Below the pieces are notes generated by a model, which was not told the DNA's origin, did no database searches, and saw nothing but the letters and a program-made list of their open reading frames with translations. From a virus (taxonomy: Duplodnaviria; Heunggongvirae; Uroviricota; Caudoviricetes): a DNA stretch of 44,468 nt. Positions 7,674 through 39,915 of the stretch are shown in pieces. Numbering within the stretch: the first letter of the stretch is position 1; the number at the start of each line of letters is the position of its first letter. The stretch covers positions 1 through 44,468 of IMG/VR virus record IMGVR_UViG_2778261246_000004; one strand, written 5' to 3'. Both the position numbers and the translations under genes were made by a program.

Positions 7674-8192
7674 TTAAACCCGGATGATTTTTTTCAGATC
7701 AGACAGAACATTAACGCCGTTAATACGGCGCACAAATTCCTCCGGAATAATGCAGATGGTTTCCACACCGTCGACAGCCTGACGGTAATAACTCAGTGAC
7801 ATTTCCACCGTCACCGAAGCCTCTGCCTGTGATGTCGCCGGGCGCGCATCCGGCGTGATACTGGTGATCATCCCCTGCAGTGTCTCCACCTGCCCGCTGG
7901 TCGCATTTCCCACCTGGTAAGCCTGGCGGACAACAATCTCCGGCGAATAAAGCCCGGCCTGCAATCCCAGCAGCGTAAGCATGGCAACATCATAACCATA
8001 AATCTTAAACGAACAGGTCAGCGCTTCCATGCCGTCATCCACTGCCACCGGTGCATCCATTGCGCCGGTTTTGATATCCACTGTCGTGATATTAATGGCA
8101 GGCGGCGTGTATTCATGCGCACCCTGAAGGCGGATCCCGCCAGGAAGAAATAACGCCCATGCGCGCAACAGTTTTTTTTCACCCGTCATCAT
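7674..8192 (-). CDS. Tail tube protein (P2 FII-like)
   Basis: 172-aa ORF directly downstream of sheath with ATGA overlap; same length as P2 FII. Confidence 0.75.
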   Translation of the reverse strand: MMTGEKKLLRAWALFLPGGIRLQGAHEYTPPAINITTVDIKTGAMDAPVAVDDGMEALTCSFKIYGYDVAMLTLLGLQAGLYSPEIVVRQAYQVGNATSGQVETLQGMITSITPDARPATSQAEASVTVEMSLSYYRQAVDGVETICIIPEEFVRRINGVNVLSDLKKIIRV

Positions 8193-9664
8193 ACCGTCAG
8201 TTCCTCCAGCGCCAGTTTATTGTTAATCATTGCCCGCAGTGTCAGGCGCTCCAGTGGTGACTTCGGCCCAAAGTCATAATCGATATACAACTGCCCTGCC
8301 GCCAGGGTTTCTGCTGTATTCAGTTCATCATTCAGCCAGGCGCTGCCACCGTGGATCGCACCCAGATTTTTAAGCTGACGCATATAGGCATTAATGCTGC
8401 CAAGAATGTCGTCTGCCACATCCCGATCAAGCGGGCGATCGACATAAGGCAACATGGCCTCCTGGATACTGTCCTCAATCACATCTGCAGTGCGACGTAC
8501 CGGTTCAAAGCGCCACTGACTGTGGGATGTGCACAGACGGTTACCCCAGTGTTTAAAACCGTCATGGCGAATAATGGTGGAGATATTTTCCATGTTCAGC
8601 AGGTTTGCCGTGCAGTTCTGCTCCCCGAGAATAAACGTATCCACCTGCTCCAGACCGGTGATATTCATCACGTCCTGGTTTGATTTGGACCACCACCACC
8701 CTTTTTCGTAATCAATACGGGCACGCAGCCCGGCAGCACGAGCCGAATATGGACGAAATATCGTTTGCCCGCTGTCATCCGTCACTGACACGCGCGGACG
8801 CAGCAGCTCCACACGCCCACCAAATGACGCGCGCCGCTGAACCACATCCTGCGGCGTTGCCATTGAAGGCGAGTCAATATAGGCCACAGCCCGCAGCTTC
8901 ACGGCATACGTTTCCAGCGCCTTTGCCACGCCATCATCCTCACTGTACCCCGTGGCAATGAGGATGCGCGGTTGATAGCCTGTGACGCCCTTACTTTCTG
9001 TCAGCGCCTCCATGGCCTGAATCACCGCCGCACGCTGTTCGGCCTCTTTCGCCTTTGTTTTACTTTCTGCGCGCACCACAATCACCAGCGCACCAGTCTG
9101 GTCAAAAATATCACGCAGGGCCGGGTATAATGTTCCGGCTGTGCCCAGTTTCCCCGCCTGAGTAATGGCCCCTGCCACCACCACCGGTGTGTTGACCGGG
9201 AACGCCTCATCTTCCCCGCCGGATAACGTCAGGCTGAATGGCGACACCACTTTATTTTCAGCGCCTCCTGCATTCAGGGTGCTGGCAGCCGCCGTCACAG
9301 GCGAATCCCCCAGCGCATTCACCACTTCAGTCACACGATCCACCGTGGCGTTAACCTGGCTGTGTTCGTCCGTCCCCAGTGTTATCGTCAGGGTCGTACC
9401 TTTCAGCGAGGCCACTGTCTGCGCGTTTTGTTCCGTGGCAGCCACGGCAACAACCGAAATCTTATTACCGACCCGACCTTCCTGTTTCGCCGTGAAATCC
9501 AGCGCCGTTCCCAGCAGCCATGAGCCGGCAGTGCCGGAAGCGCACACACCACCAGAGGCGTCCGGCGCTGTCCCCACCAGGCCAATCACTGCCGTGGAGA
9601 TGGTCTGCACGGCAACCGTGCCTGTCGTCAGTTCAATGGTTTCAACACCATGTAATCCGGACAT
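8189..9664 (-). CDS. Contractile tail sheath protein (P2 FI-like)
   Basis: 491-aa ORF; size, position upstream of tube gene and overall sequence character match myovirus sheath proteins. Confidence 0.8.
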   Translation of the reverse strand: MSGLHGVETIELTTGTVAVQTISTAVIGLVGTAPDASGGVCASGTAGSWLLGTALDFTAKQEGRVGNKISVVAVAATEQNAQTVASLKGTTLTITLGTDEHSQVNATVDRVTEVVNALGDSPVTAAASTLNAGGAENKVVSPFSLTLSGGEDEAFPVNTPVVVAGAITQAGKLGTAGTLYPALRDIFDQTGALVIVVRAESKTKAKEAEQRAAVIQAMEALTESKGVTGYQPRILIATGYSEDDGVAKALETYAVKLRAVAYIDSPSMATPQDVVQRRASFGGRVELLRPRVSVTDDSGQTIFRPYSARAAGLRARIDYEKGWWWSKSNQDVMNITGLEQVDTFILGEQNCTANLLNMENISTIIRHDGFKHWGNRLCTSHSQWRFEPVRRTADVIEDSIQEAMLPYVDRPLDRDVADDILGSINAYMRQLKNLGAIHGGSAWLNDELNTAETLAAGQLYIDYDFGPKSPLERLTLRAMINNKLALEELTV

Positions 9665-28881: not shown

Positions 28882-28956
<75 letters not shown>

Positions 28957-28959
28957 ATA

Positions 28960-29035
<76 letters not shown>

Positions 29036-29037
29036 AC

Positions 29038-29114
29038 TGGACCGCCACCGGGGACTCGAACCTCGCACACTCAACTTAAAGGGTTGACGCTCTTTCCTGA
29101 TGAGCTAGTGGCGG
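29038..29114 (-). tRNA. tRNA-like element B (divergent; anticodon loop CCUUUAA, possibly UUU)
   Basis: Acceptor CCGCCAC/GTGGCGG, U8, A14, GG in D-loop, perfect 5-bp anticodon stem TCAAC/GTTGA, T-loop TTCGAGT, CCA; position 33 is C not U. Confidence 0.45.
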
Positions 29115-29115
29115 T

Positions 29116-29191
29116 TGGTGGCCCTTGCTGGATTTGAACCAGCGACCTGGCGATTATGAGTCGCTCGCTCTCACCACTGAGCTAAAGGGCC
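29116..29191 (-). tRNA. tRNA with anticodon CAU, closest to tRNA-Ile2 (lysidine type, ileX/ileZ-like)
   Basis: GGCCCTTTAGCTCAGTGGT.AGAGC...GACTCATAATCGC...GGTTCAAATCCAGCAAGGGCCACCA; near-identical to E. coli ileX by memory. Confidence 0.8.
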
Positions 29192-33099: not shown

Positions 33100-33135
33100 T
33101 CTGTTGTCGTCAACAGGCAACGTGCTATCATCGAA
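33100..33135 (+). promoter_or_regulatory. Candidate parDE promoter with overlapping palindromic operator
   Basis: TTGTCG - 16 nt - TATCAT upstream of parD; inverted repeat CTGTTG-TCGT-CAACAG overlaps the -35. Confidence 0.4.
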
Positions 33136-33166
33136 TGGTGTTCTATCCTACTCCGTGAGGTTTACC

Positions 33167-33424
33167 ATGCGTACAACCCAACAATTCAGCATTACATTAA
33201 CTAACGAAATGGCTGACATGGTGCGCGCCCGTGTGGCTTCCGGTGCCTATGCTTCAGAAAGCGAGGTCATTCGTGAAGGACTTCGCGCACTGAATGAGCG
33301 CGATAAAGCAATCGAAGCGTGGTTAACGCATTCAGCCGCTCCCTCTCTTGATTCTATCCGCGAAAATCCAAACAACGGACGCTCCATTTCACAGGTTCGC
33401 GCCGCGATTCGATCCGGGAAGTAA
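33167..33424 (+). CDS. parD: Type II antitoxin, ParD family (ribbon-helix-helix)
   Basis: 85-aa product from ATG 33167 (GAGG RBS); FSITL..EMA..V...V.SG.Y.S.SEVIREGLR.L motif; 6-nt spacing to toxin gene. Confidence 0.7.
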   Translation: MRTTQQFSITLTNEMADMVRARVASGAYASESEVIREGLRALNERDKAIEAWLTHSAAPSLDSIRENPNNGRSISQVRAAIRSGK

Positions 33425-33429
33425 TCTGC

Positions 33430-33729
33430 ATGACATATGAAGTCATCATTACTCCTGAGGCCGAACAACAAATAATCAACCTGCACAGATATATAACGGA
33501 GAAAGCAGGGAACGTCATTGCTGACAATTATGCCAATGCGCTTCTTGATTATCTTGATGGGTTTTCTACATTCCCGCATCGGGGCAATAAACGCGATGAT
33601 ATTCGCCAGGGGATGCGGGTAACTCATTTCCGCCACAGAACGATTATTGCTTTTGCCGTTGATGGCAGAAAAGTCTTTATTGTCGGTATCTATCATGGTG
33701 GGCAAAGTTATGAAACCGATTTCTTATAA
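33430..33729 (+). CDS. parE: Type II toxin, ParE/RelE family
   Basis: 99-aa ORF directly downstream of parD; typical size and pairing. Confidence 0.7.
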   Translation: MTYEVIITPEAEQQIINLHRYITEKAGNVIADNYANALLDYLDGFSTFPHRGNKRDDIRQGMRVTHFRHRTIIAFAVDGRKVFIVGIYHGGQSYETDFL

Positions 33730-33934: not shown

Positions 33935-34330
33935 TCATCGATTCACCTCCTGCTCAATATTTTTAAGGTCATTTTCCGCATACAGTATTGCTGTTCTGGC
34001 TGCTCGTAACCGGGCTTTGGCGTTTTTCTCTTCACGTTCAAGTTTTGCCACAGCTTCACGAAGAGCATCCCGCTTTGCATAGAGTGATTTAATCTCAGAC
34101 ACTATGTTTTCACCGTTTCTCGCACGGTCGAGAACAAGCTCGAACGGATCTAAAGCCAATCCGCATCGGTTACAGGTAATCGTACGATTCACTTCTGAAA
34201 TTGTTGTACGGATATGCTGACAGCATTTTTGCTCGCCGCTTTTTCTGTCGGCTATCACAACGTTGAGGAGTCCTTCCTCCTCTGATTTTGGCTGTACCAG
34301 AGTGATAACATTGTCGACTTCATTTTTCAT
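33935..34330 (-). CDS. Zinc-finger plus coiled-coil protein (paralog A)
   Basis: 131 aa; C..H...C..C motif then coiled-coil tail ...EREEKNAKARLRAARTA; paralogous to the 34943-35299 product. Confidence 0.5.
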   Translation of the reverse strand: MKNEVDNVITLVQPKSEEEGLLNVVIADRKSGEQKCCQHIRTTISEVNRTITCNRCGLALDPFELVLDRARNGENIVSEIKSLYAKRDALREAVAKLEREEKNAKARLRAARTAILYAENDLKNIEQEVNR

Positions 34331-34942: not shown

Positions 34943-35299
34943 TTATTCAGTTCTGGATTTTGTCGCCCTGCGTATCCGCGCTTTCGCGTTACGCTCAATC
35001 TGAATTAACTTTTCTATATTTTTCCGTCTTTCCTGTTCCTCCTGGCGCAATAGCCTTACATCATCTGCCAGTCTGGTTTCTCTTTTCGCCACTGAGAGCA
35101 TCCAGTCAAACGGCTCCACAACTGCACCGCAGATTTTACAGCGGACCTGACGCTCTTTTTCGTCAACCCGGACAGAAGCGTGATGGCAGTATGGTCTTTC
35201 CGATGGCTCATAAAGAAAATTAACTTGATTACGTGGGTCATCCTCTTTTGCCGGAAATAAAACAATATTACTTAACTCATCTTCTGGTTTTATTTCCAT
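34943..35299 (-). CDS. Zinc-finger plus coiled-coil protein (paralog B)
   Basis: Start at ATG 35299 (MEIKPEDE, RBS AAAGGAGAGGAG); C.H...C..C motif and C-terminal ...IERNAKARIRRATKS parallel to paralog A. Confidence 0.5.
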   Translation of the reverse strand: MEIKPEDELSNIVLFPAKEDDPRNQVNFLYEPSERPYCHHASVRVDEKERQVRCKICGAVVEPFDWMLSVAKRETRLADDVRLLRQEEQERRKNIEKLIQIERNAKARIRRATKSRTE

Positions 35300-35356
35300 A
35301 CTCCTCTCCTTTGATGCGAATGCCAGCGGCAATTGAAGCCTGATAGTTAATTTCAC

Positions 35357-35779
35357 TCACAGCACCACCTCCTGAAATTTCCCCTGATAAAACGACAATA
35401 TGCGCTGCATAACTTCACTCTTCCGGCACTCGCGACAGATTATGTTCTGACGCCTGTCGTAGCGACGTATTTCTCCGTCAGGTAATGACCAGATAAGGTC
35501 CGGATCAACCGCAGATGGTTTCTTCAGCTTTGCCCTTGAGAGCTTTTTACGGGCATTTTGCCAGTCCTTACGCGCCTGTTCAGACGGGAATAACCCGTAA
35601 CCAGAGTTGTATACATCGCCGCTGGCAACCAGCTCTCTTGCGAGAACGCTCATCAGATATCTTGTCGCACCTGTCTTGACTTCCAGTTGCCGTAACGTCT
35701 CACGCCCACTCTGGCGTACGAGTTCAACAACCTGTCCTTTAATTTTTTCCCGCTCTTCTTGTGTAAAAACTTTTGCCAC
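35357..35779 (-). CDS. Hypothetical phage early protein
   Basis: 140-aa ORF in an operon with replication and nin genes; basic, with Cys pair C.EC. Confidence 0.4.
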   Translation of the reverse strand: MAKVFTQEEREKIKGQVVELVRQSGRETLRQLEVKTGATRYLMSVLARELVASGDVYNSGYGLFPSEQARKDWQNARKKLSRAKLKKPSAVDPDLIWSLPDGEIRRYDRRQNIICRECRKSEVMQRILSFYQGKFQEVVL

Positions 35780-35819: not shown

Positions 35820-36896
35820 TTACCCCCTGAAGCCCGGCGGAATTTCGTTATCCGGTTCAGAAATATGATTCACACAACGCTGGTTGTTCGTGCCGCTTAC
35901 CGGGAGCAACCAGGGGTTCTCAAAATTCCGGTCCGGTCCAAAAAACGTCGTCGCTCGCTGAACAAATTCCGTTCCCGTTTTCCCGGTAGCCGCCAGGTAT
36001 CTTGCGTAACGCCTCACGCCATCCAGCATGGCCTCTGGTGGCACCCCCTCGCGTAATCTGGCCTTCCAGGCACTGAAAGCTGATTTCTTCGGGTTTGCTC
36101 CGGCACGCAACGGGTACTCCCGCCAGACCTGTTCGAACACATCCGGATAATCCACTCGTCCCACAGACTGCCCGGTGTTTTCCGGGACTACCCGATCGGC
36201 TTCCCGCTGAATGGCGGAATCGGCTTCGGGCTGCTGCAGTTGGTGTGATTGCTCCAGCCTTGCGGTCATCACCTGCTGCACAGCGCCCGAATCGGCTTTC
36301 AGCGCATACGCTGAATCGGCTTCCGGTGTCGTGCCTGCTGGCTGACCAAGATTGACGGTCTGAACATCCCCTGCCTGGTTCGTGGCGTTTTTTACGCCAT
36401 GGACCATAGTGTTTTGATCTTCTTGATCTGTATCTTTATCTGTATCTTTATCTGTCGTGACTCGTCGTGACATGTGCGTGACATTTCGTGACGCGCCGTG
36501 ACAATCGCCATTTTGTTCCCGCTTTCTTTCCCTCTCTCGCTGCGCCCTCTTGCGCTCTGCAGGAGATTTTGCGGTTTGCGAAATATTGCCGTTGTCCTCT
36601 TTAAGCACCTGGCGTTTTTCCCATCCAGTGATTAAATCACCATCAAGTACCCGCCCCTGCATCGTCTGCAAAATTGAATCAATTACCTCTTCTGTCACGT
36701 CGAGCGCACTTGCCAAATCTTCTGTCGTGACATCAATGTGACCTCGCGTGACATTTCGTGACGCGCTCACCAGGAGGTGGATATACACTGCCATCACTGT
36801 TGCAATTGGCTGCCCTGACACCCTGGCAATTGTTCGCCACTTAGGGTCATTTGGCATGTCATGCCATAATCTGAGCCAGGCGTTAGCCATACTCAC
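35820..36896 (-). CDS. Replication initiation protein (replisome-organizer type) containing the putative origin iterons
   Basis: 358 aa; N-terminus MANAWLRLWHDMPNDPKW...IA..VY.HLL typical of phage replisome organizers (memory); two clusters of CGTGAC repeats inside the gene. Confidence 0.6.
   Translation of the reverse strand: MSMANAWLRLWHDMPNDPKWRTIARVSGQPIATVMAVYIHLLVSASRNVTRGHIDVTTEDLASALDVTEEVIDSILQTMQGRVLDGDLITGWEKRQVLKEDNGNISQTAKSPAERKRAQRERERKREQNGDCHGASRNVTHMSRRVTTDKDTDKDTDQEDQNTMVHGVKNATNQAGDVQTVNLGQPAGTTPEADSAYALKADSGAVQQVMTARLEQSHQLQQPEADSAIQREADRVVPENTGQSVGRVDYPDVFEQVWREYPLRAGANPKKSAFSAWKARLREGVPPEAMLDGVRRYARYLAATGKTGTEFVQRATTFFGPDRNFENPWLLPVSGTNNQRCVNHISEPDNEIPPGFRG
36434..36515. 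repeat. Iteron cluster 1: 2.5 copies of ATCTGTATCTTT then five CGTGAC repeats at 10-11 bp spacing
   Basis: Seen directly; 22-bp element GCGTGACATTTCGTGACGCGC shared with cluster 2. Confidence 0.6.
36690..36765. repeat. Iteron cluster 2: four to five GTCACG/CGTGAC repeats including second copy of GCGTGACATTTCGTGACGCGC
   Basis: Seen directly, about 260 bp from cluster 1 inside the same gene. Confidence 0.6.
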
Positions 36897-36961: not shown

Positions 36962-37387
36962 TCAATGTACTGCCACAGCATTTCCTGCCGGGCCACCACG
37001 GTTCATCTGATTGAAACCGGCGATTGCCACTGCGACAAAATCATCAGCGTCTCTCACCAGTCGCTCCCGCGTCTCCACCAGCTCCCGAAAATAAGCTGAA
37101 CTGTGGCTGCGCATTCTGGCCACCAGCAAAGGTGGCATTGCCTTTTCGATCGCTGGTAACAACGCCTGAATTTTTTCAACTGCATCAGGGGTGTCTTTCT
37201 CTACCCAGCGGAAAATTTTCTGGGTATTGCGAGCCAGGGCTTCCGGATGGCTGTCGTCATACAGTTCTGGGAACGTCATACCCAGTTCAAAATAAGCCCT
37301 GGTTATTTCAGCTGCCGGAACTTTTTCACCGTCCGGATGCGCCCAGGCATTCATCGCCATGCGGATGTGTTCATGCTTGATTTTCAT
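36962..37387 (-). CDS. CII-like / YdaT-like early regulator
   Basis: 141-aa ORF immediately downstream of the Cro-like gene; resemblance to Rac YdaT from memory. Confidence 0.45.
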   Translation of the reverse strand: MKIKHEHIRMAMNAWAHPDGEKVPAAEITRAYFELGMTFPELYDDSHPEALARNTQKIFRWVEKDTPDAVEKIQALLPAIEKAMPPLLVARMRSHSSAYFRELVETRERLVRDADDFVAVAIAGFNQMNRGGPAGNAVAVH

Positions 37388-37652
37388 GAATCAAGCTCCT
37401 AGAAAGTGGTTGTGTTAACGTTTTGGTATCTTCCAGCTCGGGCCAAATATTCATCCAATCAAAAGGCCTTAGTTGCTGACGTGTAACTTCACCATTACTG
37501 GCTCGCTCAATAAGGACACATAACGATGCCCCTAACACTTGACCTTTACTCAATGCCTTTCTTAGATAACCGATGCTGGTACCACACTCGCATGCAAACA
37601 TACGCTGTTCATCTGACGAAAGAGAATTGAGAAATATTCTTAATTCTTCCAT
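37371..37652 (-). CDS. Cro-like HTH regulator (YdaS/DicC analogue)
   Basis: 93-aa ORF divergent from the repressor gene; HTH-like segment EQRMFACECGTSIGYLRKAL. Confidence 0.55.
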   Translation of the reverse strand: MEELRIFLNSLSSDEQRMFACECGTSIGYLRKALSKGQVLGASLCVLIERASNGEVTRQQLRPFDWMNIWPELEDTKTLTQPLSRSLIHENQA

Positions 37653-37679
37653 AGCTACTCCTTAGTAAACACAGTAAAG

Positions 37680-37735
37680 AATACCCACAGGTAAACAAAA
37701 GTCAATACCCACAGGTTGTTTACCTTGCGGTAATC
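37680..37735. promoter_or_regulatory. Immunity-region operators: three copies of a TACC-N4-5-GGTA half-palindrome between divergent Cro-like and repressor genes
   Basis: ATACCCACAGGTA (x2) and TTACCTTGCGGTAA seen directly. Confidence 0.5.
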
Positions 37736-37752
37736 GCATCTATTATTTACCT

Positions 37753-38172
37753 ATGGACAAATATGAATTTAGACGACAGCAACTCATCAAAATTCGTGAT
37801 GAGAAATGCGATGGTAAAGCGGTTAACGTGGCCAGAAAGATCGGGCGCGAGCCTTCTTATGTATCAAGAATGTTGTACCCAGAGGGGAAAAAGGGAAAAA
37901 AACGGATCGCTGATGATATGGTGGAGATTATCGAAGAGTCCTTTGGGTTACCCCGGGGATGGATGGATGGTATCGTTTCATCATCAACGAACACAGCCTC
38001 CAGTTATGAAACAAGGGTTCTAACGCCACGACAACGTATTTTTTTAGATCTCTTAGACGAACTGCCAGAAAGTGAAGCGGATAACTTATTAAAAACTCTT
38101 GAAGAGAAAAAACAGTATTACAATATGATCTACGAAGAAATCCGTAAAAAGAAAGCACAAAACGCATCATAG
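37753..38172 (+). CDS. Prophage repressor, DicA/RacR-like HTH protein
   Basis: 139 aa; HTH VNVARKIGREPSYVSRML; C-terminus L.P...FLDLLDELPESEAD resembles DicA (memory). Confidence 0.65.
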   Translation: MDKYEFRRQQLIKIRDEKCDGKAVNVARKIGREPSYVSRMLYPEGKKGKKRIADDMVEIIEESFGLPRGWMDGIVSSSTNTASSYETRVLTPRQRIFLDLLDELPESEADNLLKTLEEKKQYYNMIYEEIRKKKAQNAS

Positions 38173-39311: not shown

Positions 39312-39364
39312 TTTCTGGTGACGTTTGGCGGTATCAGTTTTACTCCGTGACTGCTCTGCCGCCC
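39312..39364 (+). ncRNA. dicF: DicF small regulatory RNA
   Basis: UUUCUGGUGACGUUUGGCGGUAUCAGUUUUACUCCGUGACUGCUCUGCCGCCC plus U5 matches remembered E. coli DicF; lies between ydfC-like and dicB as in Qin. Confidence 0.8.
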
Positions 39365-39538: not shown

Positions 39539-39727
39539 ATGGAAACGTTATTACCAAACGTTAATACGTCTGAAGGTTGTTTTGAAATTGGTGTCACTAT
39601 CAGTAACCCTGTATTTACTGAAGATGCCATTAACAAGAGAAAACACGAACGGGAGTTACTAAATAAAATATGCATTCTTTCAATGCTGGCCCGTTTACGT
39701 CCGATACAAAAAGGATGCTGGCAATGA
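39539..39727 (+). CDS. dicB: Cell division inhibitor DicB
   Basis: 62-aa product M.TLLPNVNTSEGCFEIGVTISNPVFTEDAINKRK.ERELLNKICI.SMLARLR matches DicB; RBS GAGG. Confidence 0.85.
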   Translation: METLLPNVNTSEGCFEIGVTISNPVFTEDAINKRKHERELLNKICILSMLARLRPIQKGCWQ

Positions 39728-39915
39728 ATACAGCATTTGCACTTGTTCTGACAGTTTTTCTTGTTTCCGGAGAGCCAGTTGATATTGCAGTCAGTGTTCA
39801 CAGAACAATGCAGGAATGTATGGCAGCAGCAACCGAACAGAAAATTCCCGGTAACTGTTACCCGGTCGATAAAGTTATTCACCAGGATAGTAACGAAATC
39901 CCGGCAGGTCTTTAA
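39724..39915 (+). CDS. ydfD: YdfD-like small membrane protein
   Basis: ATGA overlap with dicB stop; MNTAFALVLTVFLVSGEPVDIAVSVHRTMQECM.AATEQKIPGNCYPVDKVIHQD..EIPAGL matches Qin YdfD. Confidence 0.7.
   Translation: MNTAFALVLTVFLVSGEPVDIAVSVHRTMQECMAAATEQKIPGNCYPVDKVIHQDSNEIPAGL

Follow-up and report, generated by a model that had tools for sequence, protein, structure and literature searches.

A candidate replication origin within the initiator gene of a lambdoid Escherichia coli prophage that has no detectable helicase loader of its own

Within the replication initiator gene of a Caudoviricetes genome of 44,468 nt (IMG/VR record IMGVR_UViG_2778261246_000004; the whole of this stretch is referred to as the window) we find two arrays of short direct repeats, together with an adjoining A+T-rich tract. 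By far the best reading of these elements, judging from their arrangement and from their relatives, is that they would form a replication origin within the initiator gene. In its full form, to which we assign a probability of roughly 0.65, the proposal is that this is the vegetative origin of a lambdoid E. coli prophage, located in its own initiator gene, and that the initiator recruits the host's DnaB-DnaC in a phage that has no loader. An origin within an initiator gene is of a known kind, and what deserves attention is rather the lack of a loader, along with the connection to the tail of DnaT; no earlier description of the origin of this module was found in the literature searched. The original prediction had likewise read the arrays as the prophage origin, and the iteron-like character of the repeats, their location in the initiator gene, the A+T-rich neighbour and the comparative data all speak in its favour.

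The initiator gene is the third of the early-right operon, behind cro/YdaS-like and cII/YdaT-like genes. Its extent and that of its N-terminal domain are:

35820..36890, minus strand: gene for the replication initiator, 356 aa if read from the ATG at 36890; PHROG phrog_3729.
36510..36890, minus strand: N-terminal domain, presumed to bind the origin; aa 1-127, with a helical core (1-80) and a basic helix (110-126) according to AlphaFold2.

The ORF lister starts the gene at a GTG at 36896, which gives an initiator of 358 aa. The protein matches phrog_3729, 'replication initiation protein', over its full length (E 3e-257), is labelled 'phage replisome organizer' or 'hypothetical protein' by PGAP, and reaches the threshold of no Pfam family. 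Its AlphaFold2 model consists of two small domains with more than 100 disordered residues between them; Foldseek found no PDB entry with E < 1 for the full-length model, and a profile search of the N-terminal domain against PDB sequences gave no match. So what kind of domain is it? Its match to PF09681 (Phage_rep_org_N), which arose in one of ten family members, covers positions 1-119 of the 121 in the profile and scores 16.4 bits (E 0.0096) against a cut-off of 23.3. There are furthermore weak matches of the N-terminal domain to Crp-type HTH domains, and of the initiator to PHROG 'replisome organizer' families (E 4e-6 and 2e-4). From these resemblances the N-terminal domain is probably a distant relative of PF09681, though not a member by the curated threshold. 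The initiator of Bacillus phage SPP1, G38P, belongs to PF09681 and binds oriL inside its own gene as well as a second site elsewhere. The near-full-length match and the PGAP name are what the present initiator has in common with it; unlike the phage studied here, whose initiator stays below the Pfam threshold, SPP1 brings both a loader (G39P) and a helicase (G40P) of its own.

Two clusters of CGTGAC at helical spacing had been predicted in the replisome-organizer gene, about 260 bp apart, and both the exact positions and Tandem Repeats Finder (a 10-bp period x4.9 at 36454-36503) agree with this. Read in the orientation of the gene, where the hexamer is GTCACG, the sites are arranged as follows:

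36456..36502, minus strand: gene-distal iteron array, five exact GTCACG 10-11 bp apart; encodes aa 130-146.
36726..36766, minus strand: gene-proximal iteron array, GTCACG, GTCACG, GTCACA and GTCACG in steps of 10, 10 and 11 bp.
36694..36699, plus strand: lone inverted hexamer, 32 bp past the proximal array in the direction of the gene.

On the plus strand, the exact CGTGAC copies of the distal array start at 36456, 36466, 36477, 36487 and 36497 (steps of 10, 11, 10 and 10), and those of the proximal array at 36726, 36747 and 36757, with a TGTGAC variant at 36737. The separation of ~260 bp corresponds to ~25 helical turns, the proximal array lying upstream in the gene. An element said to be shared by both clusters is indeed identical at 36476-36496 and 36746-36766, although it measures 21 bp (GCGTGACATTTCGTGACGCGC) rather than the 22 bp first given. 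Moreover, the inverted hexamer and its flanks pair with the edge of the distal array, forming a 12-nt inverted repeat that is 92% complementary (36461-36472 / 36693-36704). The hexamer occurs 23 times in the 44.5-kb window and nine of these copies fall inside ~310 bp, where 0.098 would be expected from the rest of the window (Poisson P ~2e-15). As for the protein, the distal array is coded within the linker that AlphaFold2 predicts to be disordered (128-243), and the proximal array encodes aa 43-55, within the N-terminal domain. Part of the conservation of the latter array could thus come from protein constraint, since it codes for a folded domain, and its role could be autoregulation or pairing of the arrays rather than initiation.

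Next to the distal array the gene changes in composition, and two further elements were located there:

36400..36455, no strand assigned: A+T-rich strand-asymmetric tract adjoining the distal array, with two GATC sites; candidate DNA-unwinding element.
36376..36406, no strand assigned: inverted repeat with 13-bp arms TGGTTCGTGGCGT / ACGCCATGGACCA around a loop of 5 nt, across the A+T-rich tract from the distal array.

The tract is 68-71% A+T with an AT skew of -0.63, forms the GC-poorest part of the gene (32.5% GC), and holds GATAAAGATACA x2.9 at 36421-36455, which Tandem Repeats Finder reports as TCTTTATCTGTA x2.9. Across E. coli prophages the copy number of this repeat ranges from 1.5 to 5.5. 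The tract is conserved in nucleotide sequence in the Aeromonas and Pseudomonas versions, and at the corresponding place the distant relatives L116, L119 and L129 have AGATAA/GATAAA runs. The inverted repeat beyond it is possibly a third element of the origin, which we put forward as suggestive only. Of 40 related loci, 15 have an inverted repeat at 45-75 nt past the last iteron that could form a hairpin and that scores within the top 10% of windows drawn at random from the same locus (nominal binomial P 3.5e-6, with one mismatch allowed in the scored measure and with loci that are related, not independent). The sequences of these inverted repeats differ from locus to locus, and a measure based on perfect-stem hairpins did not discriminate them. 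Rfam gave no RNA family overlapping the region.

The comparison with relatives of the N-terminal domain is particularly informative, as this layout is kept wholly or partly in ~40 of ~50 full-length ones, which come from Gamma-, Beta- and Alphaproteobacteria and Acidobacteria. We compared 52 genome loci from many genera, in which the arrays lie at gene nt ~130-165 and 355-425 with 10-bp spacing; ~40 related loci have an array where the proximal one lies (gene nt about 129-160). The hexamer core is GTCACG in close relatives and GTAACG or CGAACG in farther ones, and the alphaproteobacterial locus L139 has a single array with the core AACGCC. Loci in which both arrays were detected have an identical core in each, and most copies per 10-kb locus are intragenic. 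From one relative to another, the hexamers of both arrays change together, and so do the peptides that they encode. The inverted copy near gene nt 192 recurs as well, in many relatives (L089, L092-L094, L097, L105, L107, L004 and L005). A second set consisted of 80 IMG/VR contigs with an N-terminal domain identical to that of the window; here the distal hexamers are almost invariant and their spacers vary, with ATCACG at one position of L035. The number of distal copies is five in E. coli, three in Aeromonas and four in Pseudomonas, and the phages of the latter two genera combine an N-terminal domain that is ~70% identical with the same hexamer. Aeromonas phage pAEv1818 and Pseudomonas phage phi1 have only the N-terminal 140 aa in common with the window, and both clusters and the GATAAAGATA tract are present in them. 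Conversely, phage 75/02 Stx has only the C-terminal half of the initiator in common, and no GTCACG cluster. The cI/cro region is exchanged independently, and the arrays co-vary with the N-terminal domain instead. Taken at the level of sequence, these comparative data are strong evidence in favour of an origin that would be bound by the initiator.

Nevertheless, arrays of this type might serve as regulatory operators, with the true origin elsewhere or with a recombination-dependent or PriA-dependent start of replication. Autoregulation is common among iteron-binding initiators, and the proximal array lies near the start of the gene, a place at which transcription could be blocked by bound protein. 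Furthermore, there is no DnaA box with at most one mismatch near the arrays, where two-mismatch sites only were found, and the DnaT-like tail described below could in principle engage the PriA/PriB restart machinery and not DnaB-DnaC. We nonetheless judge this reading unlikely, because the conserved triad of iterons, A+T-rich strand-asymmetric tract and inverted repeat is origin-like, and because the arrays are located inside the gene and not at its promoter, promoter-like sites being found at 37678-37746 instead. Moreover, the arrays follow the N-terminal domain of the initiator and not the cI/cro region, and in the other regions inspected we noticed no cluster of repeats like these. Replication and autoregulation combined in the same arrays would be compatible with their being an origin.

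The candidate origin invites comparison with that of lambda, in which an A+T-rich tract and a palindrome come after the iterons. As in lambda, it would lie within the initiator gene of the pR operon, with a Ren-like gene after the module and with the distal array in the linker between the presumed N-terminal origin-binding and C-terminal recruitment domains; the order of iterons, A+T-rich strand-asymmetric tract and inverted repeat, in the direction of transcription, is also the same. However, lambda has four sites of 18-19 bp, whereas here a 6-bp core is spaced by 10-11 bp and is purely direct within the arrays, and a second array with an inverted site lies 260 bp away in the region coding for the N-terminal domain. 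The window is furthermore without a P gene, and lambda O ends in …LDLTNTDWIYGVDL where the present initiator has its DnaT-like tail. There is no sequence similarity between the two, as tblastn of lambda O against the window gave nothing better than E 1. Iteron plasmids provide another parallel: R6K pi, pSC101 RepA and RK2 TrfA are lone initiators that act on direct repeats beside an A+T-rich region and recruit host DnaB (with DnaC in E. coli), no loader of their own being involved, and in P4 two separated clusters of short repeats, ori and crr, are needed. An element-encoded initiator, direct repeats and the use of a host helicase are common to these systems and to our proposal, as are the two clusters in the case of P4. 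Plasmid iterons, however, are 17-22 bp long at a spacing of about two turns and usually require DnaA boxes, of which none within one mismatch is present here, and no sequence relationship with the iteron plasmid initiators or with P4 was detected.

So how would such a phage load its helicase? The absence of a P/DnaC-like loader gene, already noted in the original prediction, was borne out across the window by tblastn, PHROG and Pfam. In the tblastn searches E. coli DnaC, two phage DnaC-like proteins, lambda P, E. coli DnaB, P22 gp12 and a 609-aa phage protein (a 'replication protein P' by annotation only) gave no match better than E 0.2. PHROG and Pfam were applied to the ORFs of the early region and to ten others, among them the majority of the long ORFs; they revealed no detectable loader or helicase, although a very divergent or novel loader may escape such searches, and the neighbouring and long ORFs gave structural, regulatory or accessory genes only. 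With no P-, DnaC- or DnaB-like gene in the window, dependence on host DnaB-DnaC is the natural inference, and of the earlier proposal that the phage relies on host DnaC or on a novel partner it is this first half that is favoured. The C-terminal part of the initiator comprises:

35901..36155, minus strand: C-terminal helical domain, presumed to recruit the host machinery; aa 246-330.
35823..35897, minus strand: C-terminal tail SGTNNQRCVNHISEPDNEIPPGFRG, matched by the flexible tail in which E. coli DnaT ends.

A check of the C-terminus for DnaT-like features, as had been recommended, proved rewarding. The final 24 residues of the initiator (ending SEPDNEIPPGFRG) align with positions 156-179 of the 179 in the NCBIfam DnaT model (E 6.6e-4); the score of the initiator against this model, NF002770, is 19.4 bits compared to a cut-off of 201, with the tail alone matched. 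By BLASTP, 15 of 25 residues of the tail are identical to E. coli DnaT (pairwise E 1e-7), including SEPDxxIPPGFRG at the C-terminal end, and tblastn of DnaT against the whole window returned the tail as the sole match (E 6.5e-6). A profile of the C-terminal domain also matched the DnaT chains 6aep and 2ru8 in the PDB, via the tail only, and the domain gave no significant structural match. Pfam did not find PF17948, the ssDNA-binding domain of DnaT, in the initiator of the window, whereas it is present in sister initiators that share the same N-terminal domain. Within DnaT, the tail corresponds to the flexible 20 residues beyond the three-helix bundle (PMC5778457). In E. coli dnaT lies directly 5' of dnaC, as the phage initiator does with respect to the DnaC-like gene in the loader-containing variant, and the dnaC of Enterobacteriaceae is a domesticated phage gene (PMC5109545). 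It should be noted, however, that the similarity to DnaT is confined to the tail, and that DnaT works at forks via PriA and PriB, not at an origin. According to a 2026 cryo-EM paper on the preprimosome, which favours the N-terminal domain of DnaT and does not discuss the tail, the recruitment of DnaB/DnaC 'remains unknown' (PMC13377028). The resemblance suggests a way in which the phage may borrow the host helicase-loading machinery. Going one step further, …S-x-P-D-x-x-I-P-x-G-F-R-G might be a portable docking motif for enterobacterial DnaB-DnaC, common to DnaT and to the C-termini of several unrelated phage initiators, a tentative idea for which we would give somewhat less than even odds.

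An origin working along these lines would be bipartite, with four GTCACG-type sites and one inverted site in the proximal array and five sites in the distal array, the distal array being followed by the A-rich (GATAAAGATACA)n tract and the inverted repeat. The N-terminal helical (winged-helix-like) domain would bind the hexamers on one face of the helix and oligomerise, possibly bridging the arrays, and the A+T-rich tract beside the distal array would melt. The C-terminal domain with its DnaT-like tail would bring in host DnaB as a DnaB-DnaC complex, and the phage would for this reason need no loader of its own.

The genes that follow the initiator in other genomes bear directly on this proposal. 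In 67 of the 80 IMG/VR contigs a Ren-like gene comes next, at +38 or +41 nt, and in nine a DnaC-like gene lies at +7 nt behind the same initiator (tail EPDTEIPPGFRG); a DnaC paralogue is, in other words, an optional part of the module. Tail-bearing initiators without a loader were found in the window, Shigella L089, Superficieibacter L098, Scandinavium L107, SfV, cdtI and Stx2a_WGPS2, all of these cases belonging to the Enterobacteriaceae, and tail-bearing initiators followed by a DnaC-like gene alone in 75/02 Stx, L113 and a Klebsiella phage. Neither a P-like loader nor a phage helicase follows a tail-bearing initiator in the cases examined, an association of tail and loader that extends over about a dozen lineages, which are phylogenetically related. 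Phage phiP27 has the same C-terminal domain with its own DnaC-like and DnaB-like genes, and no tail. Many of the non-enterobacterial relatives have no detectable partner gene, where detection may be insensitive. The loader-carrying form is well illustrated by Shigella phage 75/02 Stx (Eru4 replication type, PMC8951638), in which the C-terminal half of the initiator has 63% aa identity, the tail …SEPDTEIPPGFRG is identical and a Ren-like DUF977 gene lies downstream. In contrast to the window, its N-terminal domain is a different one, GTCACG arrays are absent, and a DnaC-like loader and a DUF1627 gene are located between the initiator and the Ren-like gene; this DnaC-like protein aligns along its whole length with E. 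coli DnaC at 51% identity. With an initiator presumed to bind the origin and with neither helicase nor loader, the window itself is of the 'O-only' type described for phage LLS and for 34 of 314 Enterobacteriales lambdoid phages (PMC12315714, Genome Res 2025). Phage Tritos, which carries the same module at 98.6% protein identity, is included in that study, according to which O-only replication 'is not yet understood', and which does not describe an origin, iterons or a DnaT-like tail.

Could the module then be a decayed remnant, in which an initiator and DnaC-like pair lost its loader by deletion, so that the prophage no longer replicates autonomously and the arrays are a fossil origin? The existence of the +7 nt variant, in nine contigs and in phages of the 75/02 Stx type, fits such a scenario, and in H1, the E. 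coli match that comes closest to the window, the integrase is frameshifted. However, the loader-less form is the majority form among the contigs and is carried by 1552 E. coli genomes at a query coverage of at least 80%, and the intact initiator ORF and the almost invariant iteron hexamers make decay improbable. The same C-terminal domain and tail occur with no loader in SfV, cdtI and Stx2a_WGPS2, and the 34 phages with an O homologue only among the 314 of the 2025 survey count against it as well. Finally, the genome records of the phages Tritos and Evi and of five vB_Eco phages contain the loader-less module, which speaks against its being simply defective.

A loader might also be hidden among the genes downstream of the initiator, the first of which is:

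35357..35779, minus strand: 140-aa gene, DUF977 / LygF / Ren-like; listed for context, as neither origin component nor loader.

This ORF had been singled out as the possible novel partner. It occupies the position of lambda P, 41 nt after the initiator, and its product has a predicted winged-helix-like N-terminus; either this protein or that of a small downstream ORF (e.g. the two zinc-ribbon phrog_1621 paralogues) would then be a novel loader or adaptor replacing P or DnaC. Profile searches, however, place the 140-aa protein in the DUF977/Ren-like group, with 106.9 bits against PF06163 (gathering threshold 22.1, E 1e-30) and E 7.5e-47 against phrog_142, 'Ren-like exclusion protein', and BLASTP aligns its C-terminal 20 aa with lambda Ren at 45% identity (E 5e-6). 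Lambda Ren, the gene of which comes after P, is dispensable for lambda replication. No ATPase signature or helicase-binding family was detected in the 140-aa protein by Pfam or PHROG. DUF977/Ren-like genes also trail modules that do carry a loader, as in 75/02 Stx, Klebsiella ST13-OXA48phi12.4 and the nine IMG/VR contigs, which makes the ORF a poor loader candidate. The loader-less initiators of Superficieibacter, Scandinavium, SfV and cdtI, moreover, have other genes downstream (ParB-like, methyltransferase, transcriptional-activator-like or dam/PAPS-reductase-type). We consequently find a loader or adaptor among these genes very unlikely, and that part of the earlier proposal is not supported.

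That the repeats merely reflect a repetitive peptide (…SRNVT…, DKDT) with no function at the DNA level is effectively refuted: although the 21-bp duplicate encodes ASRNVT both times and the 12-mer encodes (DKDT)n, GTCACG is present in frames 0, 1 and 2 of the gene, and 20,000 trials of synonymous-codon resampling of the same protein gave a mean of 0.74 hexamers and a maximum of 6 against the 8 observed (P < 5e-5), so that the repeat is a feature of the DNA, as is also evident from relatives that swap the hexamer in both arrays jointly while the peptides change, and from hexamers that hardly vary between variable spacers.

Well over a thousand complete E. coli genomes carry the module, which has relatives in Shiga-toxin and cdt phages and is among the commonest phage replication systems in E. 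coli. For this system the present analysis defines a candidate origin, made up of the two iteron arrays, a candidate unwinding element and an inverted repeat, and the cores GTCACG, GTAACG and CGAACG provide a natural specificity series for swaps. The hypothesis on the tail touches an open question in replication restart, namely which part of DnaT recruits DnaB-DnaC. If the docking motif were true, helicase loading by 'O-only' lambdoid phages would be explained, and the tail of DnaT, instead of or besides its N-terminal domain, would be the missing contact to DnaB-DnaC. The dnaT-dnaC operon would in that case look like a domesticated pair of phage initiator and loader.

A side idea, itself unproven, concerned a different tail: the lambda O-like 'LDxxxxDW', found on sister initiators, was considered as a specifier of P-type loaders. 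In L094 and L111 initiators with this tail are followed by P-like genes. L090, however, has the tail and no detectable P-like gene, and in L091 and L095 P-like genes are present, yet the tails are less similar to 'LDxxxxDW'.

The replication initiator gene of this prophage carries two arrays of the hexamer CGTGAC, and we consider the region embedding them to be, with a probability of about 0.85, the replication origin, which would be of the initiator-embedded iteron kind, as judged from sequence. The distal array has the hexamer (plus strand) at 36456, 36466, 36477, 36487 and 36497, and the proximal cluster at 36726, 36747 and 36757, with a TGTGAC variant at 36737 and an inverted copy at 36694. 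Every element that the original prediction had listed for these repeats was found on exact computation, and Tandem Repeats Finder recovers a 12-mer x2.9 at 36421-36455 and a 10-bp period x4.9; the element common to both arrays is an exact 21-mer, at 36476 and 36746. Nine of the window's 23 CGTGAC copies fall within ~310 bp, where 0.1 would be expected (P ~2e-15). In gene orientation, GTCACG occupies all three reading frames, the distal array encoding CH, SR, VT, SR and VT, and synonymous-codon resampling of the same protein (20,000 trials) gave a mean of 0.74 copies and a maximum of 6, against the 8 observed. Therefore, the hexamer repeat is under selection as DNA sequence.

The window is a lambdoid E. 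coli prophage with its early-right operon on the minus strand. Its segment 35300-37700 matches an E. coli chromosome at 99.1% identity, and 1552 of the 5426 complete E. coli genomes contain at least 80% of that segment. The features around the arrays are:

37753-38172, plus strand: cI-like gene, divergent from the early-right operon
37371-37652, minus strand: cro/YdaS-like gene, early-right operon
36962-37387, minus strand: cII/YdaT-like gene, early-right operon
35820-36890, minus strand: replication initiator, full-length match to PHROG 3729 'replication initiation protein' (E 3e-257)
36376-36406: inverted repeat with 13-bp arms, on the far side of an A+T-rich tract from the distal array
35357-35779, minus strand: DUF977/Ren-like gene (140 aa), after the initiator

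Searched against Pfam, the initiator has no family reaching threshold. The distal array falls in a linker left disordered by AlphaFold2 (residues 128-243), comparable to the O linker in which lambda has its iterons. Immediately past this array, GC content drops to its lowest value in the gene (36400-36459, 32.5% GC), in an A+T-rich tract with strong strand asymmetry and two GATC sites. The inverted repeat beyond encodes a peptide, MVHGVKNAT, conserved within the otherwise variable linker. In relatives, a potentially hairpin-forming repeat with another sequence tends to lie 45-75 nt past the last iteron, and its score ranks in the top 10% of random windows for 15 of the 40 loci, which are not independent of one another; an inverted repeat as a shared feature of these putative origins is therefore suggestive only. 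The proximal array, with a conserved inverted hexamer copy alongside, is placed within the sequence encoding the folded N-terminal domain, some 25 helical turns away from the distal array, and has no counterpart in lambda. The present arrangement is reminiscent of bipartite origins such as P4 ori/crr. No DnaA boxes with fewer than two mismatches occur near the arrays. What is new here is the combination of short-core, helically phased, bipartite arrays with an initiator that probably shares distant ancestry with replisome organizers and ends in a DnaT-like tail, in a module lacking a loader.

The initiator is modular, its N-terminal 140 residues and C-terminal half recurring separately: the former at ~70% identity in pAEv1818, an Aeromonas phage, and in several phages of Pseudomonas, the latter on other N-termini in 75/02 Stx (a Shigella phage), SfV, cdtI and numerous Stx phages. 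The arrays track the N-terminal domain, as both GTCACG clusters are present, ~250-260 bp apart, in pAEv1818 and phi1 and neither in 75/02 Stx. A DNA alignment across three genera shows the order proximal array, inverted copy, distal array (5, 3 or 4 units) and then ACAGATAAAGATA(C/A)AGATAAAGAT. A profile scan with the N-terminal domain, taking one genome per species, yielded 52 loci from Gamma-, Beta- and Alphaproteobacteria and Acidobacteria. In 26 of these (phage loci L004 and L005 counted), GTCACG arrays lie at gene nt ~129-160 and ~387-430 and hold most copies of each 10-kb locus. More divergent relatives have the same two positions and 10-bp spacing with a different core, namely GTAACG in five loci (L109, L113, L120, L121, L130) and CGAACG(C) in about ten (L116, L118, L119, L122-L127, L135); the alphaproteobacterial L139 has a single array with an AACGCC core, and L124 likewise has one array only. 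AGATAA/GATAAA runs often come after the distal array in these divergent relatives. The layout is kept, whole or in part, in ~40 of ~50 full-length loci, and both arrays of a locus, where detected, have the same core. Both arrays change in concert with the DNA-binding domain, as an initiator-iteron pair predicts, giving the original reading as an origin strong comparative support. With layout and phasing constant, these cores form a natural specificity series that could map the domain's recognition code. Comparison of 80 viral contigs of E. coli shows nearly constant hexamers and variable spacers. The (GATAAAGATACA)n tract at 36421-36455, encoding (DKDT)n, ranges from 1.5 to 5.5 units among otherwise near-identical E. 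coli prophages (loci L009-L088), resulting in initiators of 354-368 aa.

How, then, is the helicase loaded? The predicted lack of a loader gene held up, as none was detectable: tblastn of the whole window gave no match to any of seven reference proteins, namely DnaC and DnaB of E. coli, P of lambda, gp12 of P22, two DnaC-like proteins from phages and a 609-aa phage protein that annotation alone calls 'replication protein P', and the long ORFs scanned encode products of the sheath, tape-measure, fibre, protease, integrase and exonuclease types. Not supported was the suggestion of the 140-aa ORF as a novel partner. This DUF977, 'Ren-like' protein has the lambda Ren C-terminal motif, and its gene occurs with or without a loader in the module: it also follows modules already having a DnaC-like loader and is missing from other loader-less relatives, making it a poor loader candidate. 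A loader-less lambdoid class is already on record in a 2025 survey (PMC12315714) as a documented but unexplained design, and Tritos, one of the phages in that survey, has exactly this module.

The proposed check of the initiator's C-terminus for DnaT-like domains did return a match: its last 24 residues, ending …SEPDNEIPPGFRG, align with positions 156-179 of 179 of the NCBIfam DnaT model (E 6.6e-4; 15/25 identical to the DnaT C-terminal end), the only DnaT match in the window. Among 80 viral contigs in which the N-terminal domain is identical, the initiator is followed by the Ren-like gene in 67 and by a DnaC-like gene at +7 nt in 9; the DnaC-like protein of 75/02 Stx shares 51% identity with E. 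coli DnaC. Downstream partners across the family include DnaC-like, P-like and DnaB-like genes, as well as homologues of the 609-aa phi1 protein (a 'replication protein P' by annotation only). Every tail-bearing initiator seen has either no loader or only a DnaC-like gene beside it, and phiP27, with the same C-terminal domain and its own DnaC-like and DnaB-like genes, is without the tail. All loader-less, tail-bearing cases come from Enterobacteriaceae, whose dnaC is itself a domesticated phage gene (PMC5109545); in E. coli, dnaT is the gene immediately upstream of it. Host DnaB-DnaC is probably used: the C-terminal region would recruit host DnaB as the DnaB-DnaC complex, and a phage DnaC paralogue would be an optional substitute for this route. 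Rather more tentatively, the tail could be the recruiting motif, with DnaB, DnaC or another protein, e.g. PriA, as candidate partner. A 2026 preprimosome structure paper states that DnaB/DnaC recruitment 'remains unknown' and favours the DnaT N-terminal domain, the tail not being discussed there (PMC13377028); a 2024 study notes that DnaC and DnaT are not known to interact directly (PMC11087952).

Sister initiators (P0057, P0067, P0112) have an acidic 'LDxxxxDW'-type tail, like the lambda O C-terminus …LDLTNTDWIYGVDL (L008), and a lambda-P-like loader gene follows such initiators in loci L094 and L111, with none detectable in L090. Initiator C-terminal tails may be partner-specifying short motifs. 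Many phage initiators have the full DnaT C-terminal domain, that of SPN1S being 63% identical to DnaT residues 86-179, and the E. coli K-12 dnaT-dnaC pair (L007, 3-nt gap) mirrors the phage pair of an initiator with DnaT-like tail and a DnaC-like gene (7-nt gap; L020, L026, L083, L003). This suggests that the C-terminus of a phage initiator may have given rise to dnaT, in parallel with the origin of dnaC from a phage loader.

Beyond the Ren-like gene follow zinc-ribbon, DUF551, ParD/ParE, DUF968, Q-like and tRNA genes, then lysis and structural genes. Two paralogous zinc-ribbon/coiled-coil ORFs (PHROG 1621; 34943-35356 and 33935-34330, minus strand) flank the DUF551 gene just downstream of the Ren-like gene, and the ParD antitoxin/ParE toxin pair (33104-33729, plus strand; PF03693, E 2e-7; PF05016, E 3e-10) is an opposite-strand insertion in the nin-like region. 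Four tandem tRNA genes (28885-29191, minus strand) separate the Q-like antiterminator region from the lysis genes, an arrangement known from Stx-phage-like late regions. The DicF antisense sRNA (39313-39364, plus strand; Rfam RF00039, 76.7 bits) and a downstream DUF1482 ORF (39670-39915) form a Qin/Rac-type cell-division-inhibition cassette, also present in Tritos. Finally, a contractile-tail structural module (sheath, phrog_23, 8189-9664, minus strand) is combined with the lambdoid early region, a mosaic echoed by the mixed vB_EcoS/vB_EcoM names among related phage records.
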